From contig OZ024744.1 of assembly GCA_964016885.1 (NCBI GenBank), positions 41,664,001 through 41,728,000 on the forward strand: 64,000 bases of DNA, given 5' to 3'. The stretch's first letter is position 1. Each line of letters starts with the position of its first letter. The stretch is from Eledone cirrhosa. Its lineage: Eukaryota. Both the position numbers and the translations under genes were made by a program. Shown here one piece after another: positions 1,521-42,097 of this stretch. Under the pieces are notes generated by a model. The model searched no databases and had not been told where the DNA came from. It was given only the letters and a program-made list of their open reading frames with translations.

Positions 1521-1559
1521 CAAAGGGGGCTACTGCACCGGTAGCTGCGAGTAGAAGCG

Positions 1560-4323: not shown

Positions 4324-4336
4324 GATCAGGGGATGG

Positions 4337-20100: not shown

Positions 20101-20524
20101 CGACCGGGTCATCAATTCAGTCTATTTATATATTTTGATGCCTTCCTCTTTTAGTGAGAATTCTACAATGTAGCAGGGGCTAGCGGAGAGAATAGCGGCG
20201 GTAGTGACAATGAGGCAGCGGCAGCGGCGATGGCGGTGCTGTGCCAGCAGCAACCAGCAGGAGGTAGTGGGAGAGAATAGCGGCGGTAGCGATAATGAGG
20301 CAGCGGCGGTGGCGATGTGGTCGTATTACTGTAGCGATGGTGTTGAAGATGGAGTAGAAATATGAGTCGACTTGACCAGAGTTTTCATCGTGGCAGTGGT
20401 GGTGGCACTGGTGGTGAAATTATCTTTAGTGAAATTATCATTAGTCGCGTATATGTGATGACATAAATTCCATAATATTGGAATTAAACATTTTGTTAAA
20501 ACTAAAACTTGATTTAAAACTTGA

Positions 20525-20561
<37 letters not shown>

Positions 20562-20563
<2 letters not shown>

Positions 20564-22175
20564 AGTTGCATTTATCTTGCTTTATGTTCATACGAGTTAT
20601 CACCAAGTCACAACCAGTGACCTCAAGAGACAACAAGGTCCGCCATGTTCAAGAAAGAACAAAACATATTCACACATGCATCTTTAGTGTTTAGACTTGT
20701 GATGTACTTATATTGACAGAATCTTCCTTAGTATATGGGCAGTTCCCATTAGTACTATCTTTTGTATTTCTCCTATACGCGGGTTTCCTGGGATTTGCGA
20801 TATATAATCATTAGACCCCTTAGGTATCATTCCCAGAGCGCCTACAACCACTGGTATTGTTTTAGTTCTCAATTTCCACATTTTTCCAATTTCTATCTCC
20901 AGGTCCTTATACTTGCTCAATTTTTCAAATGTTTTTATAGATACATTCTCGTCTATTGGAACAGACATATCAATTAGCAGGGATATCCTCTTTTGAAAGT
21001 CTTTCAATATTATATCAGGTCTGTTTGCATCTATTTTTCGGTCTGTTTGGATGCTAAAGTTCCACAAGATTGAGATGTGATCTTTTTCAAGTATGGGAGG
21101 TGGTTGATGCTCCCACCAATTCTTTTGATGTGGCAGGTCAAAATGCTTACACGTTATCCAATGTATGTATTGTGCAGCTCTGTCATGCCTGTTTAGGTAT
21201 TCGGCTGGAGCTATAGGACTGCACATTGAAATTATATGGTCAATGGTCTCTGGTTGTTTTTTGCATACACGGCATAATGGGCTGCACCCATTTTTTATTA
21301 TGTTGGCTTGGTAATTTTTTGTTGGCAGACACTGATCTTGTGCCGATATAATCAGTCCTTCAGTCTCCGATTTCAGTCCAGAGGATGCCAACCACTGATG
21401 GGTTAAAGTTTTGTCAACATCAGGATTGTTAGCTCGCTCTGGGTATTTTCCATACAGAGGCTTTTCTTGCCATTTCTTAGCCAGTTTCTGTAGCAGTTCT
21501 TTCTTTGCAGTCACTTTTACCTGCTTTGCTTTTTCTGTGTTTTCCATTTCAGCAGTAAATGGGACTTCTGAAATTTGTAGTCCATTACTGTATCTTTGTG
21601 CATCTTTTGTAATGGAATATGATCATTTGATGCTTTCGTGTTTCAAAACGAGTTTGATCATCCAATCATGTGATTCCCTTAGATATGTAGATAATCCAAT
21701 TGTTGCAGTTTTCAACGCAATGTCTAACTGGATTAACCCACGTCCTCCTTCTTTCCTAGGGAGATATATTCTATCTATATCTGCCTTAGGGTGATGCATT
21801 CTGTGCATGGTTAAGAATTTTCGAATTTTTGTATCGAACCTACGGATCTCTGTGCTTGACCAGTTGATGACATTGTAACTGTAGGTTACTACTGGTATGG
21901 CAAGCGTGTTTATGGCATCGATCCTATTCCTTACATTCAATTCCGTTCTTAAGATTGCTCTTACTCTGCGGTAACATTCCTTCCTTATCCTTTCCCTCAT
22001 TGTCGAGTGCTTGATTCCGTCTCCTTCACAAACACCTAGATATTTGTAAGTTTTTTCTTGATCAAGTTCTCTTATCACGTTCCCCCGATCAAGATTAATG
22101 TCTGAACTCTTCAGCAGCTTTCCTCTGGTGAACGTTGCTTTGGCGCATTTATCTTGTCCAAACTCCATTTGAATG

Positions 22176-22177
<2 letters not shown>
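20562..22177 (-). mobile_element. R4/Dong-like element D2 (different family), 5'-truncated
   Basis: YKYLG, RKEGGRGL, CRVC..ETIDH, RHD, NRPDII, IDMSVP, PVVVGALG; one in-frame TGA at 21623; (ATT)n on both sides (20528-20561, 22178-22207). Confidence 0.9.
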
Positions 22178-22207
<30 letters not shown>

Positions 22208-22214
22208 GTTGTTA

Positions 22215-24097
22215 TTCCTTGAATCTCAGTCATTGATGTTGGTTAACTGGAAAGTCCGTTGGATTGAATATCAAGCCACTACCTGCAGCCTCAGATATTC
22301 AGGACGTATCGGAGGGTTCTTGCTGTTCCAAGCAAGCATGCCTTTTGAAGCGTTCCAAAAAGCGTGAAGGGGCCGATTTTCTTTAACCATCCCTGGAAAC
22401 TTTTGGAGATAGTCCCCAGTGCGCCTATGACAATCGGGATCACTTTGACTTCATGGCAGTTCCAAATCCTTTTCACCTCCCACTTTAGGTCCTGGTATCG
22501 GTTAATTTTCTCCCTCTCCTTCTCTTGCACTCTCGTGTCGAACGGGCAGGCCACATCCACAATCAGACACGATCTTTTTTCTTTGTCCACAACCACCAGG
22601 TCAGGTCTATTGTGTTCCAGATTTTTGTCCGTCTGTATCCTAAAATCCCACAGCACCTTCACCTGATTGTTCTCCATCACCGCCTCTGGCCTATGCTCAT
22701 ACCATTTCTCAGAATGTGGTAAATTGTTTACTTTGCACAGGTGCCAGTGGATCACCCTGCCCATCACATCGTGTCTCCAGCCCTTATAGTGGGTCTGGGC
22801 TAGGTGTTTACACTCGGACACAACGTGAGCCACAGTCTCCTCTCTCTCTCCACAGATCCTGCACAGTTGGCTAGCCTCCTCCTTGTAGATATGGTGCTTC
22901 AACCACTTCGTTTTGAGGGCCTGCTCCTGCGCAGCCATTAGCATTCCTTCTGTAGCTTTTTTAAGGTCTCCTCTTCTCAACCAGTTCCATGTCTGTGGAT
23001 CTCTAAATTCTGTTTTCTCAAAGAAGGTACTATGAAGGGATTTTCCCTTGAGGCTGCTCTTCCTCCTTGATGTTATTTCCTCCTTGGACATCCCCTGGCC
23101 TACTGTCCCCTCCTTCAGTACAGTTCTGAGCATTGGCTCCTTACTATAGGTCACGTATTTGTATAGGTTGTTTTTCTCCATCTGAACACAGTCCTCTATG
23201 CTGATAAGACCTCTTCCACCCTTAGATCTCCTTAGGTAGAGTCTATCGACATCACTCCTCTTGTGGAACATGTTGTAGATAGTCAATAGCTTCCTAGTCT
23301 TCCTATCCATTTCTTTTTGTTCAGCAACATTCCATCTCAGAATTCCCGCACTGTACTTAATAATAGACACAGCTCGGGAATTTACTGCGCTTATGGCATT
23401 TCTGCTGTTCAGACAGTTCCTCCAGTTCCAGCTCAGATCCTCCAGTTCCAGCTCGCTTATCCATCCATTAGTTCTTATTACCCGAGCCTGCCCGGCCAAT
23501 TTTTGTTCATCTAATTTAAATAAACCAATCTCGTTCCAGATGTTATGCATCCGTCTCCTGTAGCCCCTCTCCTTGGGGTTACTTTTCAGGTAACATTGCA
23601 TAACAGTTCTATTCAATTCTTTCGTCCAGTTGGTTCTGGCCCCTTTCCTTCTTCTCCTTCCTCCAACATCAGCAGTATTTGGTTGACAGCCAGGTTCCTG
23701 CTGCTGAGCCAGGGGGCACCTGTTGGGTGAGAGTCTATCACATGACGTTCTAGTCTTCATTTCACCGTTATTCGAACTGTTTATGTTCGATATTTAAACA
23801 CTCTTATCGAGGATTGGCGAATGTATGGTTACATATCCATCTGTGGATCCGCCATTCCACTTGGCCCTTGTGTGGCATTATCACCACGCTGTATACGAAC
23901 ACACATAAACAAACAAACACACAGGCAGAAAGGGCACCAAAAATGAATAAGCATAAGTTTCATTGTAATGTAGTGTTCGAATGTCTGACTTAGTTTTTGT
24001 TTTTTAAGTTTTAGTTTTTTCCCCCCTCTTCTCTGTCCGTCCGCCTCCTTCTCTCTTCATTCTTATTTTCTTTACGTTTTTTGGGTTTTTTTTTAAA

Positions 24098-24103: not shown

Positions 24104-24177
<74 letters not shown>
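24104..24177. repeat. (ATT)n tract between head-to-head Dong and Tx1 elements
   Basis: Directly visible. Confidence 0.95.
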
Positions 24178-24679
24178 GGCGACCTACGTAGGAAATCGTA
24201 TTATCGTGAGCTCCGCAAAGGTTTGTTATTTCCGTTTGTTTAAAAATTGCCATTTATGGAAAATTTTATTGTAAACTGTTTATAAGCACACATACATTGT
24301 TTTCCGAAAAGGACACCCAAAAAGATTGGGGCCTTGTGCCCAAAATTTTAACTTTTATTATTATCCAAAAATTTATTTGAAAAAAAATGGCTAATTCCCC
24401 TCTGCACGAAGCAGCTGAAAGCCTTCCTCACAAAATAACACCTCACACCGACACCACCATTGTAAATGTTACTACGTTTGCCAACACAAAAAAAAATATA
24501 AGCAGTAGCAATATTTTAAATTTGTCTCAGGCAGACATTCATTTCCCGCCATTACCAATGACTGCAGGTGTTAAACCCTCCGCCGCCACCACCACCGCGA
24601 CAACCACACCACCACCACCACCACCACCGCGACAACAGAAACAAAAGAAGAAAAAAATAAATTAACTCGTGACGTCGAA

Positions 24680-26378
24680 ATGAAATCAAGCAAAATGGAC
24701 TCTTCCCCACCAAAGACGACTGACGTCACCACCACCACAACTGAAAATAAAATTAATATTAACGATAGCAACAACAACAACAATGACATTATAAAACCGA
24801 CCCTCAGTTTCGCCATCGTAGCAAAACAATTCGAAGCGTTCACGGTAACTCAAGAAGATTTAGAAAATGCCAAACAAATGGTAAAGAAAGATGGGTACAG
24901 GGTCAGCCTCACCCCCCCCACCTAATAAAATGGAGCATCGGCGCCTGTGCACCGTGTCGTATAGAACAATAAATGTAAAATCGCGCCGAGTGGAACGGGC
25001 ATCCGAGTCCCAAATCCAAAAAGCTTTGGGACATGTGTGGGCAAGAAAAACCCACATCAGACGTGGGCAAAAGTATGGAACCGTGGATGTGTTCTTTGAA
25101 ACACCAGAGGAGGCTAGAGAACACTCCATGGCCCCATTAAAAAGTGACGACCTCACACTCGTCCCAAGCTATTGTGGCCAGAGACTCGTAAAGATCAGGG
25201 TGACCCACGTTCCACCGGCCATCGAAATTCCCTGGCTAATAGCGGCTGTCCTCGCCGGCATCGAAGCCAACACGAAAATAATAGCAGTAGCAAAAGAAAA
25301 GCAGGAAAACTGGTCCGGATCTGGGATGGAGCTCCTGATCCAAGCGGACCAAAAAAGCATTGAGGAGATCCCAGAGGTAATAGACCTCACTGACGGCAGC
25401 CACCTCACGGTAATTGTCGAGGGCAGAAGACCTAGGTGTGTCGTTTGTGGTGAAGGAACCCACCTAAGGGCTTTCTGCCCTCAGGCTAAAAGGTTGAGGC
25501 CACCTCTCCTACCCACCCCAGTGACACAACCATCAACACCACCAGTAGCAGAGATGGCAGCAACAACTGTAGCAGCAACAACAGAAGCAACTATAACAGC
25601 AACAACCCCAGCAACAGTAGCAAAACCAACACCACTACCACCACCAGCAAAACCAACACCACCACCACCCAACGCTACAGAACTAGCACCAGCGCCTACA
25701 CCATCCACCACACCACAACCAAAACTAACGTCTGTGGAGGATTTTCCACTCCCCGGCCTATCACAACTGGAGACAGATTGTGACGACAAGGAGTGGGAAA
25801 CGATATCCGGAAAAAAAAAAAGAAACCAAAAAAGAAAAAATTCTCTTCCTTCCCCATCCAAAAACAAAATACAGAGGGAAACAAATAAACTAAGAAACAA
25901 AAAAGTTAGGACAGATATGCCACCATCCACACCAGCATCACCAACCCCATCAACACAAACACCAACACCATCACCATCATTAACTCCAACACCACTATCA
26001 CCTACACCACAAAAGTCACCAAAATGCGAAACAGAAACAAACCCACAACAAACGCAAGCAAAACAAAACAACCAAAACGATACACACTACACAGCATTAA
26101 ATTTGAACAACAAGCAATTATTACACTACATCCAACACAACACCAGCATCACAGAAAAAGACTACACAACAACCCCAAAATTCACACCACCTCCACACAT
26201 ACAAATCACTCGCATCACACAGAAAACGTACATGACACTAAAACAAAAATTCCCCAAAGACATCGGAGACTTCCGACAAGCACTCTCCAGGAGGATTTAT
26301 AAGGACATCCTTCCTGAGGAGGCCACAAGCAGTGAAAAGGATGAAAAAGCCGTCCTTCCCCTACGAGAAGTAAGGTAA
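24680..26378 (+). pseudogene. E1 ORF1 (CCHC knuckle, Pro/Thr-rich), +1 frameshift in the C8 run near 24912
   Basis: ORFs 24680..24925 and 24891..26378 together align to E2 ORF1; CVVCGEGTHLRAFC. Confidence 0.85.
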
Positions 26379-26412
26379 GTGGTCTTTCCCATCTTTTCCA
26401 TTCCTTTTCAAC

Positions 26413-29400
26413 ATTACCTCACTCAGAATAGGCAGCATAAATGCGCGTGGCTTGGGGTCGTCATGGAAGCAGGGCCACCTGCTCAACGACCTCAGGTCAC
26501 TAAACATAGATGTAGTGGCCATCAGCGAGACCAGAATCTCCGAAGCACAGGCTTTCGCACCGATCTTCGGCGGCTACGATGTGTACGCATCTCCCAGCCG
26601 TCCGGGATCGGGGGGAGGAGTTGCTGTGCTTTTTCGGAGAGGTTTGGATCTTGCCATACGGGCCATATTCCTGGACCCAGAAGGTAAGTTGGTGGTGCTG
26701 GACGTGACCAGCGGAGACGGGCAAGCTTTCAGGTTAGTGGCCGTCTATGCCCCGACAGGAGCAGGGCGGCCTGATTTCTTCCGGCGTCTGGAGACCTTTC
26801 TTGGAACGTCCCGCTCTTTAGTGTTAGTGGGCAACTGGAACGGGATCTTAGATGCACGCTGGGATTGTGTGGGATTAGTGGATAGGGAAGGAGGGTGCAA
26901 GAGTCTCACCAACCTGCTCAGACGTTTTGAACTGTCTGACAGGTACCGAATGGATTTCCCGAATGTACCAATGTGGACTTGGACAAATCGCATAGGGTCA
27001 TCCAGATCATATCTAGATAGAGTATTTTGTAGGGAAATAGATAGGTCTAGCATAGGCTGTCCACAATTCAAGATAGTCAGCTACACGGACCACAAATTCG
27101 TGATCTGTGTGCTTGACTTAGATATGCTTCATAGACGAGGACCCGGCTACTGGAAGCTAAACGCGTCCTTACCAGCGCGCAAGGCCTACAGAGACCGGAT
27201 TAGCGAACTAGTTAAGCGGGCGTTGACGGGGGCCATCGTCAACAACAAGTGGTGGTTTGCTCTGAAAAGAGCAATTAGAATAGAGTCCATTAGGTTTAGT
27301 AATACTTTAGCAATAGAGAAAAATAGAGCAGAGGGAGAATTAGTTAGAAAATTAGATGAGGCGCTTAGCAAAGGCATCGCGACCGACGTACTTGCGGCGA
27401 AATTGGCCCTTGACCAATTCTTCAATGCAAAGCACGAAGGCTGCGTTGTCAGAGCTAGGGTGCGTGCTCTCAGACACGAGGGGACGAAAGCCGTTCAATG
27501 GGCCCGAGTGGCAGAGGCGCGTCGTGGCAACAAAGCCACGATCCGGTCTTTGGTGGACCACGACGGGCGCATGCTACTCGATCCCGGGCAAATGTGTGAA
27601 GCTTTTCAGCGACACTTCGCTCAACTGTTCGGGGGAAGTGGCGGGCCGGGTCGAGGGATGGACTTTAGTGTCTACCTCGACGGACTGCCGCGGCTCTCGA
27701 CCACTGAGGCGGAGTGTTGCGAAAAGCCGATAACAGCCGCTGAAGTAAGTGAGGCAATGACTGGCTGCACAAGGGGTAAATCGCCTGGTTTGGATGGTCT
27801 GCCCTATGAACTTTACGTACAAATGCCAAACTTGTTCGGAGGCCTCTTGGCGGACGTCTACTGCAACTGGCAACAGAACGGGAGAATTCCCAGCTCTGTG
27901 AGCCGAGGAGCGGTGGCGCTGCTGAGAAAGGATCCGAACAAGGGGGATAACATAGATAATTTTAGGCCCATAACTCTGCTAAACACAGAGTTCAAGATTT
28001 TGGCCAAGGTGCTAGAAAAGAGGTTGGCGCTTGTCGTTGGTGGTCTGGTGGGAGAGGCACAGACATGCGCCATTCCCGACAGATCCATCCACGACAACCT
28101 CCACCTCATGCGATACATCGTAGAGAGGGTAGCTAGGGAACCTGGCACGGGTGGGTCTTTGATCAATTTAGATCAGTCGAAAGCCTTGGATAGGGTCGAC
28201 CATCGTTACCTAGCGGCAGTCCTGAGGGCGGCTGGCTTTGGGCCCTTCTTCAGAGGCTGGATCGCTGCCATGCACAACGACATCTGCTCTGTAGTGAGAG
28301 TGAACGGTCACCTTTCGGAACCGTTCAACATCATGCGCTCGGTTCGCCAAGGATGTCCCCTCTCGTCCCTATTGTACGTATTGACTCTCGAGCCATTACT
28401 GCACAAACTGGAGACGTTGAGGGGGGTCCCGCGCGAACTAGGATGCGGAAGATCCGTGTCAGCATATGCGGACGATGTCACCGTAGTGGTGTCGAACGCC
28501 AAACACATCGAGGCGATCGGCACTACACTAAGAGAATACGAAGCGGTGACAGGAGCAATGATCAACCAGGAAAAGTCAGTGGGCCTGCAGCTCGGCACCT
28601 GGAGAGGCAGGTCCATGCCGTCCAACAGCGTCGTCGGGCGCTGGACGGACGGACCGGTTAAATTGCTAGGGGTCTGGTTCGGTCCAGACCTCCAGACGGA
28701 CAAAAACTGGGACGAGGTGACGAGCAGGGTGGCTTCTCTCACCCAGAAATGGGCCGAGAGGAAGCTATCCCTGAAAGGTCGAGCGGAGTTGGCGAATGCG
28801 TACATTGCATCCGTCATCTACTACCGCCTGACCATCGTACTTTGTCCTAAGCCCCGCCTGACTGCGCTGGAGCGTTTGCTCTTTCGCTTCTTGTGGAAGG
28901 GACGCGCTCCGATGGTCAGGCGGTCCATCTGCTGTCAACACCCACTACGTGGAGGGCTGGGCATGCCGTGGCTGATGATGCGCAGACACGCGCTCAGGCT
29001 ACGACATCTCCACCTCTTCCTCGACGGTGATCAGGTGTGGTCGCCGTTTGCAAGACACGTTTTTCCCCAGCTCGTCTCCTTGACGGAGCTGCAGTCCTGG
29101 GTCAAGCGAAGACCGAGAGGGAGCGCTTGGAGACTGGAATGTCTTCAGGCGCTCACAGCCCTCGACCAATCGGGCAATGTGATCGGTGGAAACTCCACCT
29201 TGGCGTTCTATAGGGGATTAGTGGAGGGGAAGAGCGACGACGTACTTGGAGAAACTCTTGGCGTCGACGAAAATCAACTAGCCAATCTCTTCGGAAGGAC
29301 TTTCGGGCCGGGGCCTATGGACAACTTCCAGAAATCCCTGGCCTGGCAGTGCTACCGAGGAGCTTTGCCAGTTCGGGATAAACTCTACAGGCATGGAGGT

Positions 29401-29832
29401 GCCGTCAGCCGGGCATGTCCGAGATGCGCGCAGGGCGACGAAACCGTCCTGCACGCACTCGTCCAGTGTCCGAGCATTGCTGACTTGTGGGTTTATGTCG
29501 AACACCTGCTGTCACGTGTAGGACGGATCCAGCTATCATCTGAGTCCATCGTGAGGATTGCCCCGCCTCCTTCCTTTAGCCTGGAAGGGCAGGCAGTTTT
29601 TATCTGTCTGGTGGCCATGGCGAAAGAGATAGTATGGTGGACACGTTTGAAAGGGCTGAAGACGAGCACTTACATCTTCGGTGATGCCCTGATTAACTTT
29701 TTCAAATTTCATTTGAAAAGGAAAATCAGGGTAGAGAGGGAAGTGCTCTCTTCCCAGCATTTTGTTGAAAGATGGGTGAGAGAAGCAAGTATGGCCCGAA
29801 TGAATGGGCCTTCTCTGAGTATGTGTCTGTAA
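26413..29832 (+). CDS. E1 ORF2 (APE-RT-CCHC), open, but start codon is ATT
   Basis: Colinear with E2 ORF2; YADD intact; APE GDWN is GNWN and DQSKAFD is DQSKALD. Confidence 0.88.
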   Translation: MTSLRIGSINARGLGSSWKQGHLLNDLRSLNIDVVAISETRISEAQAFAPIFGGYDVYASPSRPGSGGGVAVLFRRGLDLAIRAIFLDPEGKLVVLDVTSGDGQAFRLVAVYAPTGAGRPDFFRRLETFLGTSRSLVLVGNWNGILDARWDCVGLVDREGGCKSLTNLLRRFELSDRYRMDFPNVPMWTWTNRIGSSRSYLDRVFCREIDRSSIGCPQFKIVSYTDHKFVICVLDLDMLHRRGPGYWKLNASLPARKAYRDRISELVKRALTGAIVNNKWWFALKRAIRIESIRFSNTLAIEKNRAEGELVRKLDEALSKGIATDVLAAKLALDQFFNAKHEGCVVRARVRALRHEGTKAVQWARVAEARRGNKATIRSLVDHDGRMLLDPGQMCEAFQRHFAQLFGGSGGPGRGMDFSVYLDGLPRLSTTEAECCEKPITAAEVSEAMTGCTRGKSPGLDGLPYELYVQMPNLFGGLLADVYCNWQQNGRIPSSVSRGAVALLRKDPNKGDNIDNFRPITLLNTEFKILAKVLEKRLALVVGGLVGEAQTCAIPDRSIHDNLHLMRYIVERVAREPGTGGSLINLDQSKALDRVDHRYLAAVLRAAGFGPFFRGWIAAMHNDICSVVRVNGHLSEPFNIMRSVRQGCPLSSLLYVLTLEPLLHKLETLRGVPRELGCGRSVSAYADDVTVVVSNAKHIEAIGTTLREYEAVTGAMINQEKSVGLQLGTWRGRSMPSNSVVGRWTDGPVKLLGVWFGPDLQTDKNWDEVTSRVASLTQKWAERKLSLKGRAELANAYIASVIYYRLTIVLCPKPRLTALERLLFRFLWKGRAPMVRRSICCQHPLRGGLGMPWLMMRRHALRLRHLHLFLDGDQVWSPFARHVFPQLVSLTELQSWVKRRPRGSAWRLECLQALTALDQSGNVIGGNSTLAFYRGLVEGKSDDVLGETLGVDENQLANLFGRTFGPGPMDNFQKSLAWQCYRGALPVRDKLYRHGGAVSRACPRCAQGDETVLHALVQCPSIADLWVYVEHLLSRVGRIQLSSESIVRIAPPPSFSLEGQAVFICLVAMAKEIVWWTRLKGLKTSTYIFGDALINFFKFHLKRKIRVEREVLSSQHFVERWVREASMARMNGPSLSMCL

Positions 29833-30311
29833 ATTAAAGGTGGAAACTGGGAGAGGGCACTTGCCCTGGTGGTCAGGGCCACTGTGGTCTTTTAATGGGC
29901 TTTCTCCACAAATGTCCCTTGGAAGTCTCCCCCCTATTGGGGAATTTTTCTTTGTTATTTTATTTCAACCTCTGTTTTTTTTACACGCAGAAATGCCCAT
30001 TTGTACCGTCCTGTATTGTCCTGTACTGTCCTTAATGTCTACTTTATGTGAACCCTTGTGGTTAATAAAGAAAACATTATTATTATTATTATTATTGAAT
30101 GCCATGGTTGACGGAGTCTCGGCTCTGTAAGGTATAGTAATTTTTAACCGTTAAAACAATTGTAAATTGTTTAAAACTTGAACCAAATTGTTGATAAAGA
30201 CACCCTCCTCCTCGTGAGAGGGGTCTTTCTGTCCGTTCTTTGGCCCTTCGGGGTTAAATAACCAGTTATTGGGGTTTTGTACACAAAATTTCATTTTAAA
30301 CAAAAAACAAC

Positions 30312-32408
30312 ATGGCTACGAAAAAGAAATTTCATACGTCACTCCCACTCATTCCGTCTTCTTCTTCCTCAATTATCACTACAGCAGAGAGAAGATTGTC
30401 TCTCTCCCTCCCTTCTTTAAATGTGTCTCTCTCCCTCCCTTCTCTTTCGCAAGTGACGAAAGAAAAGAAAAGTCTCGTGCAAAGCGTGCAAGGTTTCTCC
30501 ACGACGACGACGACAGCGACGAAACAGGTGTGCGGGAAATACGAAAACCCAGTTCATTCGTCTGACGTCAGGAATAATAGCAGTAGCAGCCGTAATAACA
30601 ACAGCAACAGTGACAATGAAAACAACAGTAGCAGCCGCAACAGCATCACCAGCAGCATAAACAACAACAGCATTAGCAGCAGCAACACCAACAACAACCA
30701 CAGCAACAGCGGCGGAGGCAGTAGTCGTAGTACCTGCAGCAACAACAAAAGTACCAGCAGCTCTGACGACAACAACAACAGCAGAGAAAAACCAATCTCA
30801 TTTGCAGGTATTGCGAAAAACTTGGAAACAATCCTCATAACAAATGAGGAATTAGAGGAAGCGAAGAAGATGGTGACAAAGAACGGACACCGAGCAATCT
30901 GCAAGGCAGCGGAAAAATTTTTCGAAACCCAAGAGCACTGTACGGTCACGTACCGTACAGTAAGTACAAAATCCCGTAGGGTGGAAAGAGCCACAGAGGC
31001 CCAAATACAAAAAGCCTTGGGGTCTGTGTGGCAGCGGAAAACGCACATCACCCGAGGCAAAAAATATGCCACCGTAGACGTACTTTTTGCCACACCCCAG
31101 GAGGCAAAGGCCCAATCAGTAGTGACCCTAAGTAGCGAGGAAATGGTGTTGGTGCCCTCCTACTGCGGGCAAAAAATTGTGAGGGTCAAACTGACCCACG
31201 TTCCCCCCGGAATGACCCCTTCTTGGCTGGCCGCGTCTGTCCTCGTCGGAATCGAGGACAAAACAACTGTACTGCAAGTACAGAAAAAAGTAAGAGAAGA
31301 TTGGGTCGGCTCCTCCATTGAGATGCTAATCCAAACCAACCAGGAGTGCATCGAAGCTATCCCGGATGTGATAGACTTCGATAACGGCACTCAACTGCCC
31401 ATAAGTGTTGAGGGCAAACGCCCGAAATGCTTTCGCTGTGGATCGAAGACTCACCTCGGGGCCTTCTGCAACGAGAAGACCCTGAGAAAGGAGAAAGCCC
31501 CCCTCCTTCCGAATCCGGCTCCACGGCTACCAGCAACAGGACAAGCGGCAACCAGGAACGATAGGTCCGTGGCACCCATACCCACTCCACGGAAATCAAA
31601 AACAGCAGCAGCAGTGGAAATATTAACAACAACAACAGCAATACCAAATGCAGCTGCAACAGAGACTCCAGTGCAAACATCACCAACAACAACAAGTGAA
31701 AGAGTGGAGCTGGTACCCCTCCCCGACCTCACAGAATCAGACATGGAGTGTGAGGTGGGAGAGGGATGGCAAAAGGTCGCAAGAAGGCACAAACGCAGAA
31801 GCAGCGCATCGTCGCCTTTGAAAAGGGAGGAAAGAAATGAGAAAAGGGTAAAGTCTACTGCAAAGAGACCCACAGCAGCAACACCACCAACACCATCACC
31901 ACCCACACCAGCACCACCATCACCACCGGCGACAACCCCACCGCCAACAACACCTTCAACACCACCACCACAAGCACCAACATCGCAAACACAACAACAA
32001 AACACACACACCCAGCAACAACGACAAGAAAATAGCAGAACCATACCCCACCCCCAGAAAAACAAATGCACGGCAATAAACACACACAACAAGAAACTAA
32101 TGACTTACATAATTGAACACACAGACATTTCACAACAGGACTACATAATACCAGCACCAATCAAAACGCCAACTAACATAAGACTGCTAAAAATAGCACA
32201 GAAACAATACACAAACATTAAAACGAAATTCCCCAACGCAGTTGATGATTTCAGGGACCTAGGAGGAACCATCAATCGAAGAGTATATTCAGACATTCTC
32301 TTAGAAGAGCCGACGACCAGCCGAAGGGACGATTCAACGGTCCCTTCACCAGACGATCAAGTGAAAAGGGATGTAAAAACCATCCCTCCTCTACCAAAAG
32401 TACGGTAA
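30312..32408 (+). CDS. E2 ORF1, 698 aa (Ser/Asn-rich N-terminus, putative RRM-like core, CCHC)
   Basis: CFRCGSKTHLGAFC knuckle; homologous to but clearly diverged from E1/E3 ORF1. Confidence 0.9.
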   Translation: MATKKKFHTSLPLIPSSSSSIITTAERRLSLSLPSLNVSLSLPSLSQVTKEKKSLVQSVQGFSTTTTTATKQVCGKYENPVHSSDVRNNSSSSRNNNSNSDNENNSSSRNSITSSINNNSISSSNTNNNHSNSGGGSSRSTCSNNKSTSSSDDNNNSREKPISFAGIAKNLETILITNEELEEAKKMVTKNGHRAICKAAEKFFETQEHCTVTYRTVSTKSRRVERATEAQIQKALGSVWQRKTHITRGKKYATVDVLFATPQEAKAQSVVTLSSEEMVLVPSYCGQKIVRVKLTHVPPGMTPSWLAASVLVGIEDKTTVLQVQKKVREDWVGSSIEMLIQTNQECIEAIPDVIDFDNGTQLPISVEGKRPKCFRCGSKTHLGAFCNEKTLRKEKAPLLPNPAPRLPATGQAATRNDRSVAPIPTPRKSKTAAAVEILTTTTAIPNAAATETPVQTSPTTTSERVELVPLPDLTESDMECEVGEGWQKVARRHKRRSSASSPLKREERNEKRVKSTAKRPTAATPPTPSPPTPAPPSPPATTPPPTTPSTPPPQAPTSQTQQQNTHTQQQRQENSRTIPHPQKNKCTAINTHNKKLMTYIIEHTDISQQDYIIPAPIKTPTNIRLLKIAQKQYTNIKTKFPNAVDDFRDLGGTINRRVYSDILLEEPTTSRRDDSTVPSPDDQVKRDVKTIPPLPKVR

Positions 32409-32457
32409 GTGGTCTTTCCCATCTTTTCCACTCTATTTTAAACATGACCTCACTCAG
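32405..32457 (+). other. Predicted 53-nt intron joining ORF1 to ORF2 (equivalents at 26375-26426 and 38319-38370)
   Basis: GTAAGT donor, pyrimidine-rich body, CTCAG/TTCAG acceptor; phase 2 at both ends in all three copies. Confidence 0.5.
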
Positions 32458-35400
32458 AATAGGCAGCATAAATGCGCGTGGCTTGGGGTCGTCATGGAAG
32501 CAGGGTCACCTGCTCAACGACCTCAGGTCACTAAACATAGATGTAGTGGCCATCAGCGAGACCAGAATCTCCGAAGCACGGGCCTTCGCACCGATCTTCG
32601 GCGGCTACGATGTGTACGCATCTCCCAGCCGTCCTGGATCGGGTGGAGGAGTTGCTGTGCTTTTTCGGAGAGGTTTGGATCTCGCCATACGGGCCATCTT
32701 CCTGGACCCAGAGGGTAAGCTGGTGGTGCTGGACGTGACCAGCGGAGACGGGCAAGCTTTCAGGCTAGTGGCCGTCTATGCCCCGACAGGAGCAGGGCGG
32801 CCTGATTTCTTCCGGCGTCTGGAGACCTTTCTTGGAACGTCCCGCTCTTTAGTGTTAGTGGGCGACTGGAACGGGATCTTAGATGCACGCTGGGACTGTG
32901 TGGGATTAGCGGATAGGGGAGGAGGGTGCAAGAGCCTCACCAACCTGCTCAGGCGTTTTGAACTGTCTGACAGGTACCGATTGGATTTCCCGAATGTGCC
33001 AATGTGGACTTGGAAAAACCGCATAGGGTCATCCAGATCATATCTAGATAGAGTATTTTGTAGGGAAATAGATAGGTCTAGCATAGGCTGTCCACAGTTC
33101 AAGATAGTCAGCTACACGGACCACAAATTCGTGACCTGTGTGCTTGACTTAGATAGGCTTCATAGACGAGGACCCGGCTACTGGAAGCTAAACGCGTCCT
33201 TACCAGCGCGCAAGGCCTACAGAGACAGGATTAGCGAACTAGTTAAGCGGGCGTTGACGGGGGCCATCGTCAACAACAAGTGGTGGTTTGCTCTGAAAAG
33301 AGCGATTAGAATAGAATCGATTAGGTTTAGTAAGGCTTTAGCAATAGAGAAAAATAGAGCAGAGGGAGAACTAGTTAGAAAATTAGACGAGGCGCTTAGC
33401 AAAGGCATTGCGACCGACGTGCTTGCGGCGAAATTGGCCCTTGACCAATTCTTCAATGCAAAGCACGAAGGCTGCGTTGTCAGAGCTAGGGTGCGTGCTC
33501 TCAGACACGAGGGGACGAAAGCCGTTCAATGGGCCCGAGTGGCGGAGGCGCGTCGTGGCAACAAAGCCACGATCCGGTCTTTGGTGGACCACGACGGGCG
33601 CATGCTACTCGATCCCGGGCAAATGTGTGAAGCTTTTCAGCGACACTTCGCTCAGCTGTTCGGGGGCAGCGGGGGGCCGGGTCGAGGGATGGACTTGAGT
33701 GTCTACCTCGACGGACTGCCGCGGCTCTCGGCCACTGAGGCGAAGTGTTGCGAAAAGCCGATAACAGCCGCTGAAGTAAGGGAGGCAATGACTGGCTGCA
33801 CAAGGGGTAAATCGCCTGGTTTGGATGGTCTGCCCTATGAACTTTACGTACAGATGCCAGACTTGTTCGGAGGCCTCTTGGCGGACGTCTACTGCAACTG
33901 GCAACAGAACGGGAGAATTCCCAGTTCTGTGAGCCGAGGAGCGGTGGCACTGCTGAGAAAGGATCCGAACAAGGGGGATAACATAGACAATTTCCGGCCC
34001 ATAACTCTGCTAAACACAGAGTTTAAGATTTTGGCCAAGGTGCTAGCAAAGAGGTTGGCGCTTGTCGTTGGTGGTCTGGTGGGAGAGGCGCAGACATGCG
34101 CCATTCCCGACAGATCCATCCACGACAACCTCCACCTCATGCGATACATCGTAGAGAGGGTAGCTAGGGAACCTGGCACGGGTGGGTCCTTGATCAATTT
34201 AGATCAGTCGAAAGCTTTCGATAGGGTCGACCATCGTTACCTAGCGGCAGTCCTGAGGGCGGCTGGCTTTGGGCCCGTCTTCAGAGGCTGGATCGCTGCC
34301 ATGCACAGCGACATCTGCTCTGTGGTGAGAGTGAACGGTCACCTGTCGGAACCGTTCAACATCATGCGCTCGGTCCGCCAAGGATGTCCCCTCTCGTCCC
34401 TCTTGTACGTATTGACTCTCGAGCCATTACTGCACAAACTGGAGACGTTGAGGGGAGTCCCGCGCGAACTAGGATGCGGAAGATCCGTGTCAGCATATGC
34501 GGACGATGTCACCGTAGTGGTGTCGAACGCCAAACACATCGAGGCGATCGGCACTACACTAAGAGAATACGAAGCGGTGACAGGAGCAATGATCAACCAG
34601 GAAAAGTCAGTGGGCCTGCAGCTCGGCACCTGGAGAGGCAGGTCCATGCCGTCCAACAGCGTCGTCGGGTGCTGGACGGACGGACCGGTTAAATTGCTAG
34701 GGGTCTGGTTCGGTCCGGACCTCCAGACGGACAAAAACTGGGACGAGGTGACGAGCAGGGTGGCTTCTCTCACCCAGAAATGGGCGGAGAGGAAGCTATC
34801 CCTGAAAGGTCGAGCGGAGGTGGCTAACGCGTACATCGCGTCTGTCATCTGCTACCGCCTAACCGTCGTACCTTGTCCTAAGCCTCACCTGACTGCGCTG
34901 GAGCGTTTGCTCTTTCGCTTTTTGTGGAAGGGACGTGCTCCGATGGTCAGGCGGTCCATCTGTTGTCAACACCCACTACGTGGAGGGCTGGGCATGCCGT
35001 GGCTGATGATGCGCAGACACGCGCTCAGGCTACGACATCTCCACCTCTTCCTCGACGGTGATCAGGTGTGGTCGCCGTTTGCTAGACGCGTTTTTCCCCA
35101 GCTCGTTTCCTTGACGGAGCTGCAGTCCTGGGTCAAGCGAAGACCGAGAGGGAGCGCCTGGAGACTGGAATGTCTTCAGGCGCTCACAGCCCTCGACCAA
35201 TCGGGCAATGTGATCGGTGGAAACTCCACCTCGGCGTTCTATAGAGGATTAGTGGAGGGGAAGAGCGACGACGTACTTGGGGAAACTCTAGGCGTCGACG
35301 AAAATCAACTAGCCAATCTCTTCGGAAGAACTTTCGGGCCAGGGCCTATGGACAACTTCCAGAAATCTCTGGCCTGGCAGTGCTACCGAGGAGCCTTGCC

Positions 35401-35863
35401 AGTTCGGGATAAACTCTACAGGCATGGAGGTGCCGTCAGCCGGGCATGTCCGAGATGCGCGCAGGGCGACGAAACCGTCCTGCACGCGCTCGTCCAGTGT
35501 CCGAAAATTGCTGACTTGTGGGTTTATGTCGAACACCTGCTGTCGCGTTTAGGACGGATCCAGCTATCATCTGAGTCCATCGTGAGGATTGCCCCGCCCT
35601 CCTCCTTTAGCCGGGAAGGGCAGGCAGTTTTTATCTGTCTGGTGGCCATGGCGAAAGAGATAGTATGGTGGACACGTTTGAAAGGGCTGAAGACGAGCAC
35701 TTACCTCTTCGGTGATGCTCTGATTGACTTTTTCAAATTTCATTTGAAAAGGAAAATCAGAGTAGAGAGGGAAGTGCTCTCTTCCCAGCATTTTGTTGAA
35801 AGATGGGTGAGAGAAGCAAGAATGGCCCGAGTGAATGGGCCTACTCTGAGTATATATCTGTAA
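32444..35863 (+). CDS. E2 ORF2, 1139 aa, APE endonuclease, reverse transcriptase and CCHC
   Basis: SINARG, SET, VYAP, GDWN, YLDR, TDH, GYWKLN, SPGLDG, QGCPLS, YADD, CPRC..ETVLHALVQC all intact. Confidence 0.96.
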   Translation: MTSLRIGSINARGLGSSWKQGHLLNDLRSLNIDVVAISETRISEARAFAPIFGGYDVYASPSRPGSGGGVAVLFRRGLDLAIRAIFLDPEGKLVVLDVTSGDGQAFRLVAVYAPTGAGRPDFFRRLETFLGTSRSLVLVGDWNGILDARWDCVGLADRGGGCKSLTNLLRRFELSDRYRLDFPNVPMWTWKNRIGSSRSYLDRVFCREIDRSSIGCPQFKIVSYTDHKFVTCVLDLDRLHRRGPGYWKLNASLPARKAYRDRISELVKRALTGAIVNNKWWFALKRAIRIESIRFSKALAIEKNRAEGELVRKLDEALSKGIATDVLAAKLALDQFFNAKHEGCVVRARVRALRHEGTKAVQWARVAEARRGNKATIRSLVDHDGRMLLDPGQMCEAFQRHFAQLFGGSGGPGRGMDLSVYLDGLPRLSATEAKCCEKPITAAEVREAMTGCTRGKSPGLDGLPYELYVQMPDLFGGLLADVYCNWQQNGRIPSSVSRGAVALLRKDPNKGDNIDNFRPITLLNTEFKILAKVLAKRLALVVGGLVGEAQTCAIPDRSIHDNLHLMRYIVERVAREPGTGGSLINLDQSKAFDRVDHRYLAAVLRAAGFGPVFRGWIAAMHSDICSVVRVNGHLSEPFNIMRSVRQGCPLSSLLYVLTLEPLLHKLETLRGVPRELGCGRSVSAYADDVTVVVSNAKHIEAIGTTLREYEAVTGAMINQEKSVGLQLGTWRGRSMPSNSVVGCWTDGPVKLLGVWFGPDLQTDKNWDEVTSRVASLTQKWAERKLSLKGRAEVANAYIASVICYRLTVVPCPKPHLTALERLLFRFLWKGRAPMVRRSICCQHPLRGGLGMPWLMMRRHALRLRHLHLFLDGDQVWSPFARRVFPQLVSLTELQSWVKRRPRGSAWRLECLQALTALDQSGNVIGGNSTSAFYRGLVEGKSDDVLGETLGVDENQLANLFGRTFGPGPMDNFQKSLAWQCYRGALPVRDKLYRHGGAVSRACPRCAQGDETVLHALVQCPKIADLWVYVEHLLSRLGRIQLSSESIVRIAPPSSFSREGQAVFICLVAMAKEIVWWTRLKGLKTSTYLFGDALIDFFKFHLKRKIRVEREVLSSQHFVERWVREARMARVNGPTLSIYL

Positions 35864-36122
35864 ATTAAAGGTGGAAAACTGGGAGAGGGCACTTGCCTTG
35901 GTGGTCAGGGTCATTGTGGCTTTTTACTGGGCTTTCTCCACAAATGTCCCTCCGAAGTCTCCCCCCTATTGGGGAATTTTTCATTGTTATTTTCATTGTT
36001 ATTTTTGTTACATCCTCTGTTTTTGTTTTTTACACGCAGAAATGCCCATTTGTACCGTCCTGCATTGTCCTGCACTGTCCTTAATGTCTACTTTATGTAA
36101 ACCCTTGTGGTTAATAAAGAAA

Positions 36123-36154
<32 letters not shown>

Positions 36155-39100
36155 GGCGACCTACGTAGTAAATCGTATCATCGTGAGCTCCGCAAAGGTT
36201 TGTTATTTTCAGTTATTTAAAATTGCCATTCATGGAATTTTTTTATTGTTAACTCTATATAAGTGCACATACATTGATTTCTGAAAAGGACACTCAAAAA
36301 TATTGGAGCCTTGAGTCCAAAATTTAAACTTTTTATAATTATCAAACAAAAATTTTTCTTTGAAAAATAATGGATTTCTCAGAGTCACTTCTTCCTCACA
36401 ATCCAACACCTCACACCGACACCACCATTGTAAACATTGCTACGTTTGCCAACACTGGAATTGTAAGCAGTAGCAATATTTTAAATTTGTCTCAGGCAGA
36501 CGTTCATTTCTCGCCATTACCAATGACTGCAGGTGTTAAAGCCGCCACCACCACCACCGCGACAACCCCCACCCCCACCACCACCACAGCGACAACAGAA
36601 ACAAAAGAAAAAATAAATTAACTCATGATATCGAAATGAATTCAACCAAAATGATCTCTTCCACACTGGACACCACTGACGCCACCACCACCACAACTGA
36701 AACTAAAATTAACAATAGCAAAAATAACGATAATAACAACAGCAACAATGAAATTAAGAAAACTACCCTGAGTTTTGCCAGAGTAGCAAAAACGTGCAAA
36801 GCGATCCAGGTAACTCAGGAAGCATTAGACGAAGCCAAAGGAATGGTAAAGAAAGATGGATACAGGGTCAGCCTCACCTCCACCCACCTAATAAAATGGA
36901 GCAACGTCGCCTATGCACCGTGTCTTATCGGACAATAAACATAAAATCGCGCCGAGTGGAACGGGCATCTGAGTCCCAAATCCAAAAAGCTTTGGGACAT
37001 GTGTGGGCAAAAAAAACCCACATTAGACGTGGGCAGAAATATGGAACCGTGGACGTGTTCTTTGAAACACCAGAGGAGGCCAGAGAACACTCCATGGCCC
37101 CATTAAGAAGTGACGACCTCACACTCATCCCAAGCTATTGAGGCCAGAGACTTGTGAAGATCAGGGTGACCCACGTTCCACCGGCCATCGAAATTCCCTG
37201 GCTAATGGCTGCCGTCCTCGCCGGCATCGAGGCCAACACCAAAATAATAGAAATAGCAAAAGAAAAGCAGGAGAACTGGTCAGGATCTGGGATGGAGCTC
37301 CTGATCCAAGCGGACCATAAAAGCATTGAGGAGATGCCAGAGGTAATAGACCTCACTGACGGCAGCCACCTCACCGTAATCGTCGAGGGCAGAAGACCTA
37401 GGTGTGTCGTTTGTGGTGAAGGAACCCACCTAAGGGCTTTCTGCCCTCAGGTTAAAAGGTTGAGGCCACCTCTCTTACCCACCCCAGTGACTCAACCATC
37501 AACACCACCAGCAGCTGAAATGGCAGCAACAACTGTAGCAGCAACAACAGAAGCAACTGTAACAGCAACAACCCCAGCAACAGTAGCAAAACCAACACCA
37601 CCACCACACAACGCCCCAGAACTAGCACCAGCGCCTACACCATCCACCACGCCACAACCAAAACCAACGCCTGTGGAGGATTTTCCACTCCCCGGCTTAT
37701 CGCAACTGGAGACAGATTGTGACGACGAGGAGTGGGAAACGGTATCAGGAAAAAAGAAAAAAAGAAACCAAAAAAGAAAAAAAATGATCTCCCCCCCCCC
37801 TCCAAAAACAAAATACAGAGGGAAACAAATAAATTGACAAACAAGAAAGTTAAGACAGATATGCCACCATCCACACCAGCATCACCAACCCCATCACCAC
37901 AAACACTAACACCATCACCATCATTAACCCCAACACCACCTTCACCAACACCACAAGAGTCACCAAAAAGCGTAACAGAAACAAACCCACAACAAACGCA
38001 AACAAAACAAAACAACCAAAACGATACACACTACACAGCATTAAATTTGAACAACAAGCAATTATTACACTACATCCAACACAACACCAGCATCACAGAA
38101 AAAGACTACACAACAACCCCAAAATTCACACCACCTCCACACATACAAATCACTCGCATCACACAGAAAACGTACATGACACTAAAACAAAAATTCCCCA
38201 AAGACATCGGAGACTTCCGACAAACACTCTCCAGGAGGATTTATAAGGACATCCTTCCGGAGGAGGCCACAAGCCATGAAAAGGATGGACACACCATCCT
38301 TCCTCTACGAGAAGTAAGGTAAGTGGTCTTTCCCATCTTTTCCATTCCATTTCAACATGACCTCATTCAGAATAGGCAGCATAAATGCGCGTGGCTTGGG
38401 GTCGTCATGGAAGCAGGGCCACCTGCTCAACGACCTCAGGTCACTAAACATAGATGTAGTGGCCATCAGCGAGACCAGAATCTCCGAAGCACAGGCTTTC
38501 GCACCGATCTTCGGCGGCTACGATGTGTACGCATCTCCCAGCCGTCCGGGGTCGGGGGGAGGAGTTGCTGTGCTTTTTCGGAGAGGTTTGGTTCTCGCCA
38601 TACGGGCCATCTTCCTGGACCCAGAGGGTAAGTTGGTGGTGCTGGACGTGACCAGCGGAGACGGGCCAGCTTTCAAGCTAGTGGCCGTCTATGCCCCGAC
38701 AGGAGTAAGGCGACCTGATTTCTTCCGGCGTCTGGAGACCTTTCTTGGAACGTCCCGCTCTTTAGTGTTAGTGGGCGACTGGAACGGGATCTTAGATGCA
38801 CGCTGGGACTGTGTGGGATTAGCGGATAGGGGAGGAGGGTGCAAGAGCCTCACCAACCTGCTCAGGCGTTTTGAACTGTCTGACAGGTACCGATTGGATT
38901 TCCCGAATGTGCTAATGTGGACTTGGAAAAATCGCATAGAGTCATCCAGATCATATCTAGATAGAGTATTTTGTAGGGAAATAGATAGGTCTAGCTTAGG
39001 CTGTCCACAATTCAAGATAGTCAGCTACACGGACCACAAATTCGTGATCTGTGTGCTTGACTTAGATAGGCTTCATAGACGAGGACCCAGCTACTGGAAG

Positions 39101-42014
39101 CTAAACGCGTCCTTACCAGCGCGCAAGGCCTACAGAGACAGGATTAGCGAACTAGTTAAGCGGGCGTTGACGGGGGCCATCGTCAACAACAAGTGGGGTG
39201 GTTTGCATTGAAAAGAGCGATTAGAATAGAATCCATTAGGTTTAGTAAAGCTTTAGCAATAGAGAAAAATAGAGCAGAGGGAGAACTAGTTAGAAAATTA
39301 GACGAGGCGCTTAGCAAAGGCATTGCGACCGACGTGCTTGCGGCGAAATTGGCCCTTGACCAATTCTTCAATGCAAAGCACGAAGGCTGCGTTGTCAGAG
39401 CTAGGGTGCGTGCTCTCAGACACGAGGGGACGAAAGCCGTTCAATGGGCCTGAGTGGCGGAGGCGCGTCGTGGCAACAAAGCCACGATCCGGTCTTTGGT
39501 GGACCACGACGGGCGCATGCTACTCGATCCCGGGCAAATGTGTGAAGCTTTTCAGCGACACTTCGCTCAACTGTTCGGGGGCAGTGGCGGGCCGGGTCGA
39601 GGGATGGACTTTAGTGTCTACCTCGACGGACTGCCGCGGCTCTCGACCACTGAGGCGGAGTGTTGCGAAAAGCCGATAACAGCCGCTGAAGTAAGTGAGG
39701 CAATGACTGGCTGCACAAGGGGTAAATCGCCTGGTTTGGATGGTCTGCCCTATGAACTTTACGTACAGATGCCAGACTTGTTCGGAGGCCTCTTGGCGGA
39801 CGTCTACTGCAACTGGCAACAGAACGGGAGAATTCCCAGTTCTGTGAGCCTAGGAGCGGTGGCACTGCTGGGAAAGGATCCGAACAAGGGGGATAACATA
39901 GATAATTTCAGGCCCATAACTGCTAAACACAGAGTTCAAGATTTTGGTCAAGGTGCTAGCAAAGAGGTTGGCGCTTGTCGTTGGTGGTCTGGTGGGAGAG
40001 GCGCAGACATGCGCCATTCCCGACAGATCCATCCACGACAACCTCCACCTCATGCGATACATCGTAGAGAGGGTAGCTAGGGAACCTGGCACGGGTGGGT
40101 CCTTGATCAATTTAGATCAGTCGAAAGCTTTCGATAGGGTCGACCATCGTTACCTAGCGGCAGTCCTGAGGGCGGCTGGCTTTGGGCCCGTCTTCAGAGG
40201 CTGGATCGCTGCCATGCACAGCGACATCTGCTCTGTGGTGAGAGTGAACGGTCACCTTTCGGAACCGTTCAACATCATGCGCTCGGTCCGCCAAGGATGT
40301 CCCCTCTCGTCCCTCTTGTACGTATTGACTCTCGAGCCATTACTGCACAAACTGGAGACGTTGAGGGGGCGTCCCGCGCGAACTAGGATGCGGAAGATCC
40401 GTGTCAGTATATGCGGACGATGTCACCGTAGTGGTGTCGAATGCCAAACACATCGAGGCGATCGGCACTACACTAAGAGAATACGAAGCGGTGACAGGAG
40501 CAATGATCAACCAGGAAAAGTCAGTGGGCCTGCAGCTCGGCACCTGGAGAGGCAGGTCCATGCCGTCCAACAGCGTCGCCGGGCGCTGGACGGACGGACC
40601 GGTTAAATTGCTAGGGGTCTGGTTCGGTCCAGACGGACAAAAACTGGGACGAGGTGAGGAGCAGGGTGGCTTCTCTCACCCAGAAATGGGCGGAGAGGAA
40701 GCTATCCCTGAAAGGTCGAGCGGAGGTGGCTAACGCGTACATCGCGTCCGTCATCTACTACCGCCTGACCGTCGTACCTTGTCCTAAGACCCGCCTGACT
40801 GCGCTGGAGCGTTTACTCTTTCGCTTCTTGTGGAAGGGACGCGCTCCGATGGTCAGACGGTTGATCTGCTGTCAACACCCGCTACGTGGAGGGCTGGGCA
40901 TGCCGTGGCTGATGATGCGCAGACACGCGCTCAGGCTACGACATCTCCACCTCTTCCTCGACGGTGATCAGGTGTGGTCGCCGTTTGCTAGACACGTTTT
41001 TCCCCAGCTCGTCTCCTTGACGGAGCTGCAGTCCTGGGTCAAGCGAAGACCGAGAGGGAGCGCTTGGAGAATGGAATGTCTTCAGGCACTCACAGCCCTC
41101 GACCAATCGGGCAATGTGATCGGTGGAAACTTCACCTTGGCGTTCTATTGGGGATTAGTGGAGGGGAAGAGCGACGACGTACTTGGAGAAACTCTAGGCG
41201 TCGACGAAAATCAACTAGCCAATCTCTTCGGAAGGACTTTCGGGCCGGGGCCTATGGACAACTTCCAGAAATCCCTGGCCTGGCAGTGCTACCGGGGAGC
41301 TTTGCCAGTTCGGGATAAACTCTACAGGCATGGAGGTGCCGTCAGCCGGGCATGTCCGAGTTGCGCACAGGGCGACGAAACCGTCCTGCACGCACTCGTC
41401 CAGTGTCCGAGCATTGCTGACTTGTGGGTTTATGTCGAACACCTGCTGTCACGTGTAGGACGGATCCAGCTATCAGCTGAGTCCATCGTGAGGATTGCCA
41501 CGCCCTCTTCCTTCAGCCGGGAAGGGCAGGCAGTCTTTATCTGTCTGGTGGCCATGGCGAAATAGATAGTATGGTGGACACGTTTGAAAGGGCTGAAAAC
41601 GAGCACTTACATCTTCGGTGATGCCCTGATTAACTTTTTCAAATTTCATTTGAAAAGGAAAATCAGGGTAGAGAGGGAAGTGCTCTCTTCCCAGCATTTT
41701 GTTGAAAGATGGGTGAGAGAAGCAAGTATGGCCCGAGTGAATGGGCCTTCTCTGAGTATGTGTCTGTAAATTAAAGGTGGAAAACTGGGAGAGGGCACTT
41801 GTCCTGGTGGTCAGGGTCACTGTGGTCTTTTAATGGGCTTTCTCCACAAATGGCCCTCGGAAGTCTCCCCCCTATTGGGGAATTTTTCTTTGTTATTTTA
41901 TTACATCCTCTGTTTTTTTTTACATGCAGAAATGCCCATTTGTACCGTCCTGTATTGTCCTGTACTGTCCTTAATGTCTACTTTATGTAAACCCTTGTGG
42001 TTAATAAAGAAAAC
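36155..42014 (+). mobile_element. Full-length Tx1/L1-clade LINE E3 (ORF1 type A), both ORFs disrupted
   Basis: Same 5' end as E1; ORF1 36636-38322 and ORF2 38357-41769 broken by several frameshifts and stops. Confidence 0.95.
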
Positions 42015-42030
42015 ATTATATATATATATA

Positions 42031-42097
<67 letters not shown>

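Follow-up and report, generated by a model that had tools for sequence, protein, structure and literature searches.

A conserved 5' splice-donor motif at the ORF1 stop codon of a LINE clade in Eledone cirrhosa

The window analysed here, a stretch of 64,000 nucleotides of the Eledone cirrhosa genome, contains three copies (E1, E2 and E3) of a LINE in which the ORF1 stop codon lies within a 5' splice-donor consensus. This raises the question of what a donor does at the border between ORF1 and ORF2. The initial annotation had proposed a mini-intron, the removal of which would join the two reading frames into one ORF1-APE-RT polyprotein.

The reading frames of E2 and E1 are located as follows.

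30312..32408, + strand: ORF1 of copy E2 (698 aa; ORF list and tblastn), with a CCHC knuckle, a low-complexity middle and a small C-terminal domain common to related lineages
32444..35863, + strand: ORF2 of E2 (1139 aa; Pfam), with APE endonuclease, reverse transcriptase (RT) and zf-RVT, without AATAAA or ATTAAA
24891-26378: ORF1 of E1
26413-29832: ORF2 of E1

All three had been described as full-length copies with an ORF1 stop and an ORF2 start. This holds for E2, in which ORF1 and ORF2 are both open, but not for E1, which reads ATT where the ATG of ORF2 is expected, or for E3, which carries frameshifts in both ORFs. ORF2 of E2 matches the Pfam families Exo_endo_phos, RVT_1 and zf-RVT. Its nearest solved relative is human L1 ORF2p (E 1.4e-52), with R2 at 1e-21, and a short piece was matched at 64% identity in an Octopus sinensis protein. 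No match above the Pfam cut-off was obtained for ORF1. As a lead, the N-terminal part of the E1 ORF1, which is related to that of E2, resembles CCHC/ZCCHC3-type RNA-binding domains by features (0.90-0.94). The element has the organisation of the L1 group (L1/Tx1): ORF2 encodes an APE endonuclease, an RT and a C-terminal zinc finger, a separate ORF1 with an RNA-binding domain and CCHC knuckle lies upstream, and the 3' UTR has a poly(A) signal and a simple-repeat tail. Tx1-like is the name that we assume for this LINE clade.

The junction between the ORFs comprises the following features (a slash marks the donor site).

32402..32410, + strand: 5' splice-donor consensus ACG/GTAAGT across the ORF1 stop TAA of E2, phase 2, kept in nine of nine lineages
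32413..32438, + strand: pyrimidine run directly 3' of the donor, 88% C/T in E2 and 74-92% in 14 representatives
32439..32446, + strand: start context and ATG of ORF2 in E2, with A at -3 in 14 of 14 representatives
32455..32457, + strand: CAG, the proposed acceptor in E2, in ORF2 codons 4-5, conserved neither in identity nor in phase
26372..26426, + strand: homologous junction in E1, AAG/GTAAGT ... CAG, with ATT at the ORF2 start
38316..38370, + strand: homologous junction in E3, AAG/GTAAGT ... CAG, with both ORFs frameshifted

The three GT..AG segments reported initially, 26375-26426 (52 nt), 32405-32457 (53 nt) and 38319-38370 (52 nt), were found again, as were the phase-2 donor overlapping the ORF1 TAA and the stop-to-ATG spacer of 35 nt (E2) or 34 nt (E3). 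Removal of the segment does join ORF1 to ORF2 in frame in the window copies, because 14 bases of the ORF2 frame sit inside it. A caveat on shared ancestry of the copies was also borne out: they are about 96% identical from about 45 nt 5' of the donor through ORF2, and the three junctions therefore count as one observation.

Upstream of that point, E1 and E3 have 5' ends and ORF1s unlike those of E2 on an ORF2 that is 96% identical, with the switch about 45 nt before the donor. The conserved part of ORF1 shows 56% amino-acid identity between E2 and E1. Two further ORF1-plus-spacer modules, called F4 and F8 below, are found on the ORF2 lineage of the window copies (F1). Based on this switch and on these modules, ORF1 modules appear to be swapped on one ORF2 lineage.

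The host genome was searched with endonuclease queries excluding the junction and with one motif of the ATG region, and 60 stretches were fetched. Nine junction lineages of the clade were found, with endonucleases that are 55-95% identical. The ORF1 frames of relatives were set by homology of the C-terminal domain. The lineages F4, F5 and F8 are known from three, five and three decayed copies, respectively. The clade is both young and plentiful: the host genome contains more than 8,000 of its junctions. The donors read as follows.

F1 (lineage of E1, E2 and E3): AAG/GTAAGT or ACG/GTAAGT, phase 2
F2: GAG/GTAAGT, phase 2
F3: GAG/GTAAGT or AAG/GTAAGT, phase 1, stop four bases later
F4: AAG/GTAAGT followed by TGA, phase 1
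F5: AAG/GTAAGT, phase 2
F6: CAG/GTAGGT, stop TAG, in 20 of 20 copies
F7a: GAG/GTGAGT or GTAAGT, phase 2
F7b: AGG/GTGAGT, phase 1
F8: CAG/GTAAGT in one copy and GTAATT in two, phase 2

All lineages have a run of 74-92% pyrimidine 3' of the donor, A at -3 and an ATG 25-54 nt past the donor (14 of 14 representatives, F7b being read separately). F7a and F7b share the same downstream sequence and differ by one base at the donor. Copies of F7b show about 98% identity among themselves, and a hand count assigns to F7b about 44 of the first 100 F7 junctions listed. Among distant L1/Tx1-like metagenome elements, the endonuclease start was present and the junction could be read in 34 of 80 loci, and the layout of donor at the stop plus pyrimidine run was seen by eye in none of these 34.

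Conservation of the donor in diverged subfamilies had been suggested as a check. A 5' splice-site consensus is present in all nine lineages, at the ORF1 stop or four bases before it, in the form GTAAGT, GTGAGT, GTAGGT or GTAATT and with a TAA, TGA or TAG stop inside or just behind. Positions -1, +1, +2 and +6 are invariant, +3 is only A or G, and +5 deviates only in two F8 copies. Fourfold-degenerate sites of the endonuclease show 36-66% identity between the main families (90% for F1-F8), and across eight representatives only 3 of 18 such columns do not vary. The spacers cannot be aligned between families. The phase-1 lineages F3, F4 and F7b fall on three separate branches of the endonuclease tree, which has modest support and can be blurred by ORF1 swapping. 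Donors were scored by a simple nine-position match to the textbook consensus. Within about 5.4 kb of sense strand, no site scores higher than the junction donor in 9 of 10 representatives; in E2 it falls one lower. Only three other sense-strand sites are equally good, two of them at one endonuclease position.

Judged from these comparisons, the donor looks to be under selection, since it was kept through three stop codons and three separate frame shifts while the fourfold sites diverged to the identities given above. The evidence lies in the frame shifts and in the flanking bases of the donor rather than in the variety of stops, because any stop codon fits donor positions +2 to +4 for free. 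Nine lineages do not amount to nine independent origins, given their common ancestry and the swapping of ORF1 modules among them. The donor is kept beyond chance, whereas the acceptor and the phase are not.

The proposed acceptor AG is the Arg codon of LR[I/V]G in ORF2. Conservation of GT-AG and of phase had been named beforehand as a check. Only the donor was kept in nine of nine lineages; the homologous acceptor is in frame in five, out of frame in three and absent in one. In-frame acceptors are CAG in F1 (52-53 nt) and F8 (67-68 nt), and AAG in F2 (42 nt), F6 (39 nt) and F7a (58 nt; L255). CAG is thus read in two lineages only, with introns of 39-68 nt overall. In F3, F4 and F7b the homologous acceptor is out of frame because the donor is at phase 1, and F5 has lost the AG. 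The pyrimidine tract adjoins the donor, not the acceptor, and no conserved 3' YAG with adjacent tract and phase was found. The ORF2 ATG and the A at -3 both lie inside the segment to be spliced out, and both are kept in 14 of 14 representatives.

Genomic copies lacking exactly the segment had been named as a further check. None with a precise removal was found, compared to 8,059 unspliced junctions (the counts of F1, F2, F3 and F7, from exact-match patterns). F1 yielded no precise removal to either nearby AG against 4,871 unspliced junctions, one match retaining the donor. No precisely spliced copies were obtained for F2 against 758 unspliced junctions, for F7 against 1,206 (with the spacer CAG only as acceptor), or for F6, which has no count of unspliced junctions beside it. 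The single match in F3, against 1,224 unspliced junctions, is a 3-nt microhomology deletion and not a splice. Processed intron-less copies, the mark of a spliceosomal intron, were accordingly lacking in these counts. A spliced RNA encoding its own RT should leave spliced copies, if cis-preference is assumed for this clade. In human L1, whose proteins favour the RNA that encodes them, 131 of 6,609 full-length copies are spliced, which corresponds to about 2% (PMC5860796).

Our preferred reading, held tentatively and by analogy with LTR elements and retroviruses, is that the donor and pyrimidine run at the ORF1 end would bind U1 snRNP on unspliced RNA. Bound at the ORF1/ORF2 border, U1 would keep the full-length transcript from early cleavage and polyadenylation. 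The pyrimidine run may help recruitment; donor-proximal U/C runs aid U1 recruitment via TIA-1-type proteins. ORF2 would be translated from its own ATG on the bicistronic RNA by reinitiation, as in L1 and SART1. In favour of such protection by U1, the motif is kept through different stops and frames, the ATG is kept, and no precisely intron-less copies were found among the junctions counted. Neither the junction nor the 3' UTR has an acceptor that is conserved. Candidate signals to be guarded against are present in E2.

32075..32222, + strand: AATAAA at 32075 and ATTAAA at 32217, poly(A)-signal hexamers in the A-rich tail of the E2 ORF1, 330 and 188 nt upstream of the donor

ORF2 of E2 and of E1 (3.4 kb each) contain no AATAAA or ATTAAA, compared to two and five in the ORF1s. 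In 17 of the 19 copies examined, at least one of these hexamers lies in the 500 nt that precede the donor. Against protection by U1, the hexamers lie at non-homologous positions, are predicted by the composition (36-38% A) and are missing in the two remaining copies. It also leaves the place of the donor within 4 nt of the stop unaccounted for, which splicing models explain better, and RNA that carries a strong donor left unused could be kept in the nucleus.

A wider claim, which on the sequence comparisons we regard as possible but would not lean on, is that the whole LINE clade might use the host spliceosome at the ORF1/ORF2 border. An unspliced, U1-guarded template would then coexist with a spliced message kept out of retrotransposition, this message being ORF1-only or, in some families, an ORF1-ORF2 fusion. 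If true, a non-LTR element would possess a splicing switch resembling that of retroviruses.

It is rather unlikely, in our judgement, that the donor is spliced to a downstream acceptor so as to give a short ORF1-only mRNA and an excess of ORF1 protein, as with the gag mRNA of Ty1/copia elements. The acceptor could lie close by, the splice being coupled to early polyadenylation, or else far downstream, around the ORF2 end or within the 3' UTR. Such a message would account for the tight link of the donor to the ORF1 end and for the free phase, and few or no genomic copies of it are expected because the RNA lacks the RT. Precedent exists in EVD and Drosophila copia (PMC5580714). Two candidate acceptors were considered, the first being a site in the 3' UTR.

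36010..36039, + strand: acceptor-like site in the 3' UTR, a U-rich tract plus CAG ending at 36039, strong, clear in F1 only, with no genomic copy joined to it

The second is the ORF2 stop (window 35861-35863, homologues L241-L258). In 9 of 10 representatives it reads as an acceptor-like YAG with a modest pyrimidine stretch, as TAG after C-T-R and mostly followed by G; F1 reads TAA. No one acceptor stands out, however, as the F1 ORF2 ends in TAA and the F1 3' UTR site is not common to the other families. No genomic copy joined to either candidate was found (3' UTR site in F1, ORF2 stop in F2). Both were rejected as general acceptors, being not conserved in all families and without joined copies. 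Joins of the donor to distant sites were sought with two filters in F1 and one in F2, each passing about 56% of the possible exon starts. The 7 and 18 matches in F1 and 2 in F2 include no canonical splice, which says little against an ORF1-only message because the cover of exon starts is partial and RNA without ORF2 need not be copied. Splicing is also not needed to make the ORF1 stop, since ORF1 already has its own. Protection by U1 and an ORF1-only spliced message can act together, by analogy with EVD.

Among apparent donor joins, L124, L301 and L299 were rejected as microhomology deletions, and L314 and L317 as inversions. The F7 spacers (L320-L339) contain a textbook branch-point-plus-CAG stretch 31-40 nt past the donor, probably too near to pair with it. 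Judging by its sequence, this stretch could serve as acceptor for an upstream donor and give an ORF2-only RNA.

The motif might instead be a termination-reinitiation signal, or the site of another RNA-binding protein, that only resembles a donor. Its location at the stop, 25-54 nt 5' of a conserved ATG with good start context, is consistent with such a role, ORF2 translation is known to depend on ORF1 translation in L1 and SART1 (PMC2881922), and the match at donor positions +2 to +4 comes with any stop codon. We consider it improbable nevertheless, as the motif is unchanged where the stop lies outside it (F3, F4 and F7b), the free positions -1, +1, +5 and +6 fit the donor consensus, and +3 is restricted to A or G.

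The in-frame fusion proposed initially, in which the ORF1-APE-RT protein would use its ORF1 part to load onto unspliced RNA, we regard as decidedly improbable, since loss of acceptor or phase in relatives, named beforehand as speaking against it, was found in F3, F4, F7b and F5. The F1 junction itself agrees with the proposal, being in frame with CAG as the first AG past the donor, and human introns of 43, 49 and 56 nt do get spliced (PMC4463651). Every lineage also has some in-frame AG 35-75 nt away, including a TAG 5 nt further on in F3 and F4 and an in-frame TAG in three of five F5 copies. An in-frame AG somewhere is to be expected anyway, because conserved ORF2 codons give AGs in both phases. 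F7a and F7b have the same acceptors with unlike phase, and the only nearby in-frame AG of F7b is GAG; the near identity of the F7b copies indicates that this lineage amplified while the splice was out of frame. For F2 and F6 the fusion would call for introns of 42 and 39 nt with AAG acceptors. The ORF2 ATG and the A at -3 are retained although the splice would delete both. With cis-preference, genomic copies of the spliced RNA would be expected, whereas 0 stand against 4,871 unspliced junctions in F1 (95% bound 0.06%). Longer, fused ORF1 relatives were not found among 341 candidates, which is a weak negative. Contigs of X1, X3, X5 and X6 (run kind unrecorded) were compared with window 31900-33100 and are given no weight as evidence: of 120 joints, the 15 listed include none at 32404/32458, and contigs of X3, X5 and X6 pass the E2 junction unspliced. 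Splicing at a low level may still occur.

Shared ancestry without function, with an Arg-stop context reading as a donor by chance, is very improbable: although the lineages are related, with unsaturated fourfold sites, and a second AAG/GTAAGT occurs in endonuclease codons of some F1 and F4 copies, this second site is not conserved across families, and the junction keeps an invariant core amid unalignable spacers and ORF1 tails, intact after three frame shifts.

Compared to known systems, the closest likeness is to the Arabidopsis Ty1/Copia element EVD, a retrotransposon whose structural gene likewise ends in a conserved U1-type donor. There, the gag-end donor yields a short gag mRNA, U1 represses premature termination of the full-length RNA, and the unspliced RNA is the full-length template (Oberlin et al. 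2017, PMC5580714). EVD differs in being an LTR element with one gag-pol ORF, in which splicing creates the gag stop and both isoforms were seen in RNA (PMC5580714). The present clade is non-LTR, and has an ORF1 with its own stop and no conserved acceptor that we could find. HIV-1 silences its 5' LTR poly(A) site through a donor lying 195 nt downstream (PMC3694450). The major donors of HIV-1 and foamy virus lie a few hundred nt from poly(A) signals, as the donor of the clade does from candidate hexamers, and the viral ones act via U1 without splicing (PMC3694450). These guard a defined LTR poly(A) site, whereas the hexamers of the clade are scattered in an A-rich coding tail and are only candidate signals.

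Human L1 is likewise a LINE with internal splice sites, and splicing in the germ line can be read from its genomic copies (Larson et al. 2018, PMC5860796). The donor discussed for L1 is in the 5' UTR, and the spliced copies (SpIREs) are dead ends (PMC5860796), whereas the clade has its donor at the ORF1 stop and yielded no spliced copy. Like the clade, human L1 and silkworm SART1 have a bicistronic RNA, a short spacer and an ORF2 with its own conserved ATG; SART1 differs by its overlapping UAAUG (PMC2881922, PMC3894237). The accessible portions of these reinitiation accounts mention no donor at the junction (PMC2881922, PMC3894237). One RNA provides LINEs with abundant ORF1 protein, little ORF2 protein and an intact template, and how this is achieved is an open question (PMC3894237).

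Within the open-access literature accessible to us, no earlier account of a LINE with a conserved donor at its ORF1 stop was found. The same holds for the accessible cephalopod literature, in which one paper on octopus repeats was screened for Tx1, splicing, ORF1 and intron. A selected donor at this position, if true, would mean that a non-LTR element exploits U1 or splicing where ORF1 meets ORF2; LTR elements and retroviruses are described as using such a strategy. Taken together, the sequence comparisons suggest that the conserved RNA signal is real and represents a strategy known from LTR elements in a new variant, and they do not support the claim of fusion.

At window 24177-42050, the three LINE copies are arranged head to tail, each beginning directly in the (ATT)n tail of the preceding copy, which suggests that the insertion of this LINE targets ATT microsatellites. 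Tandem LINE neighbours about 6 kb apart are also frequent genome-wide. Retroelements of other kinds were found in the window as well. At 797-4600, a gag-like ORF carries CCHC motifs, and repeated ends lie near 600 and 4500; together these resemble what we take to be a decayed LTR retrotransposon. RT-bearing ORFs are located at 16712-23760 and at 46558-47526, both on the - strand; the former presumably carry a C-terminal restriction-like nuclease motif, and the latter is presumably Penelope-like.
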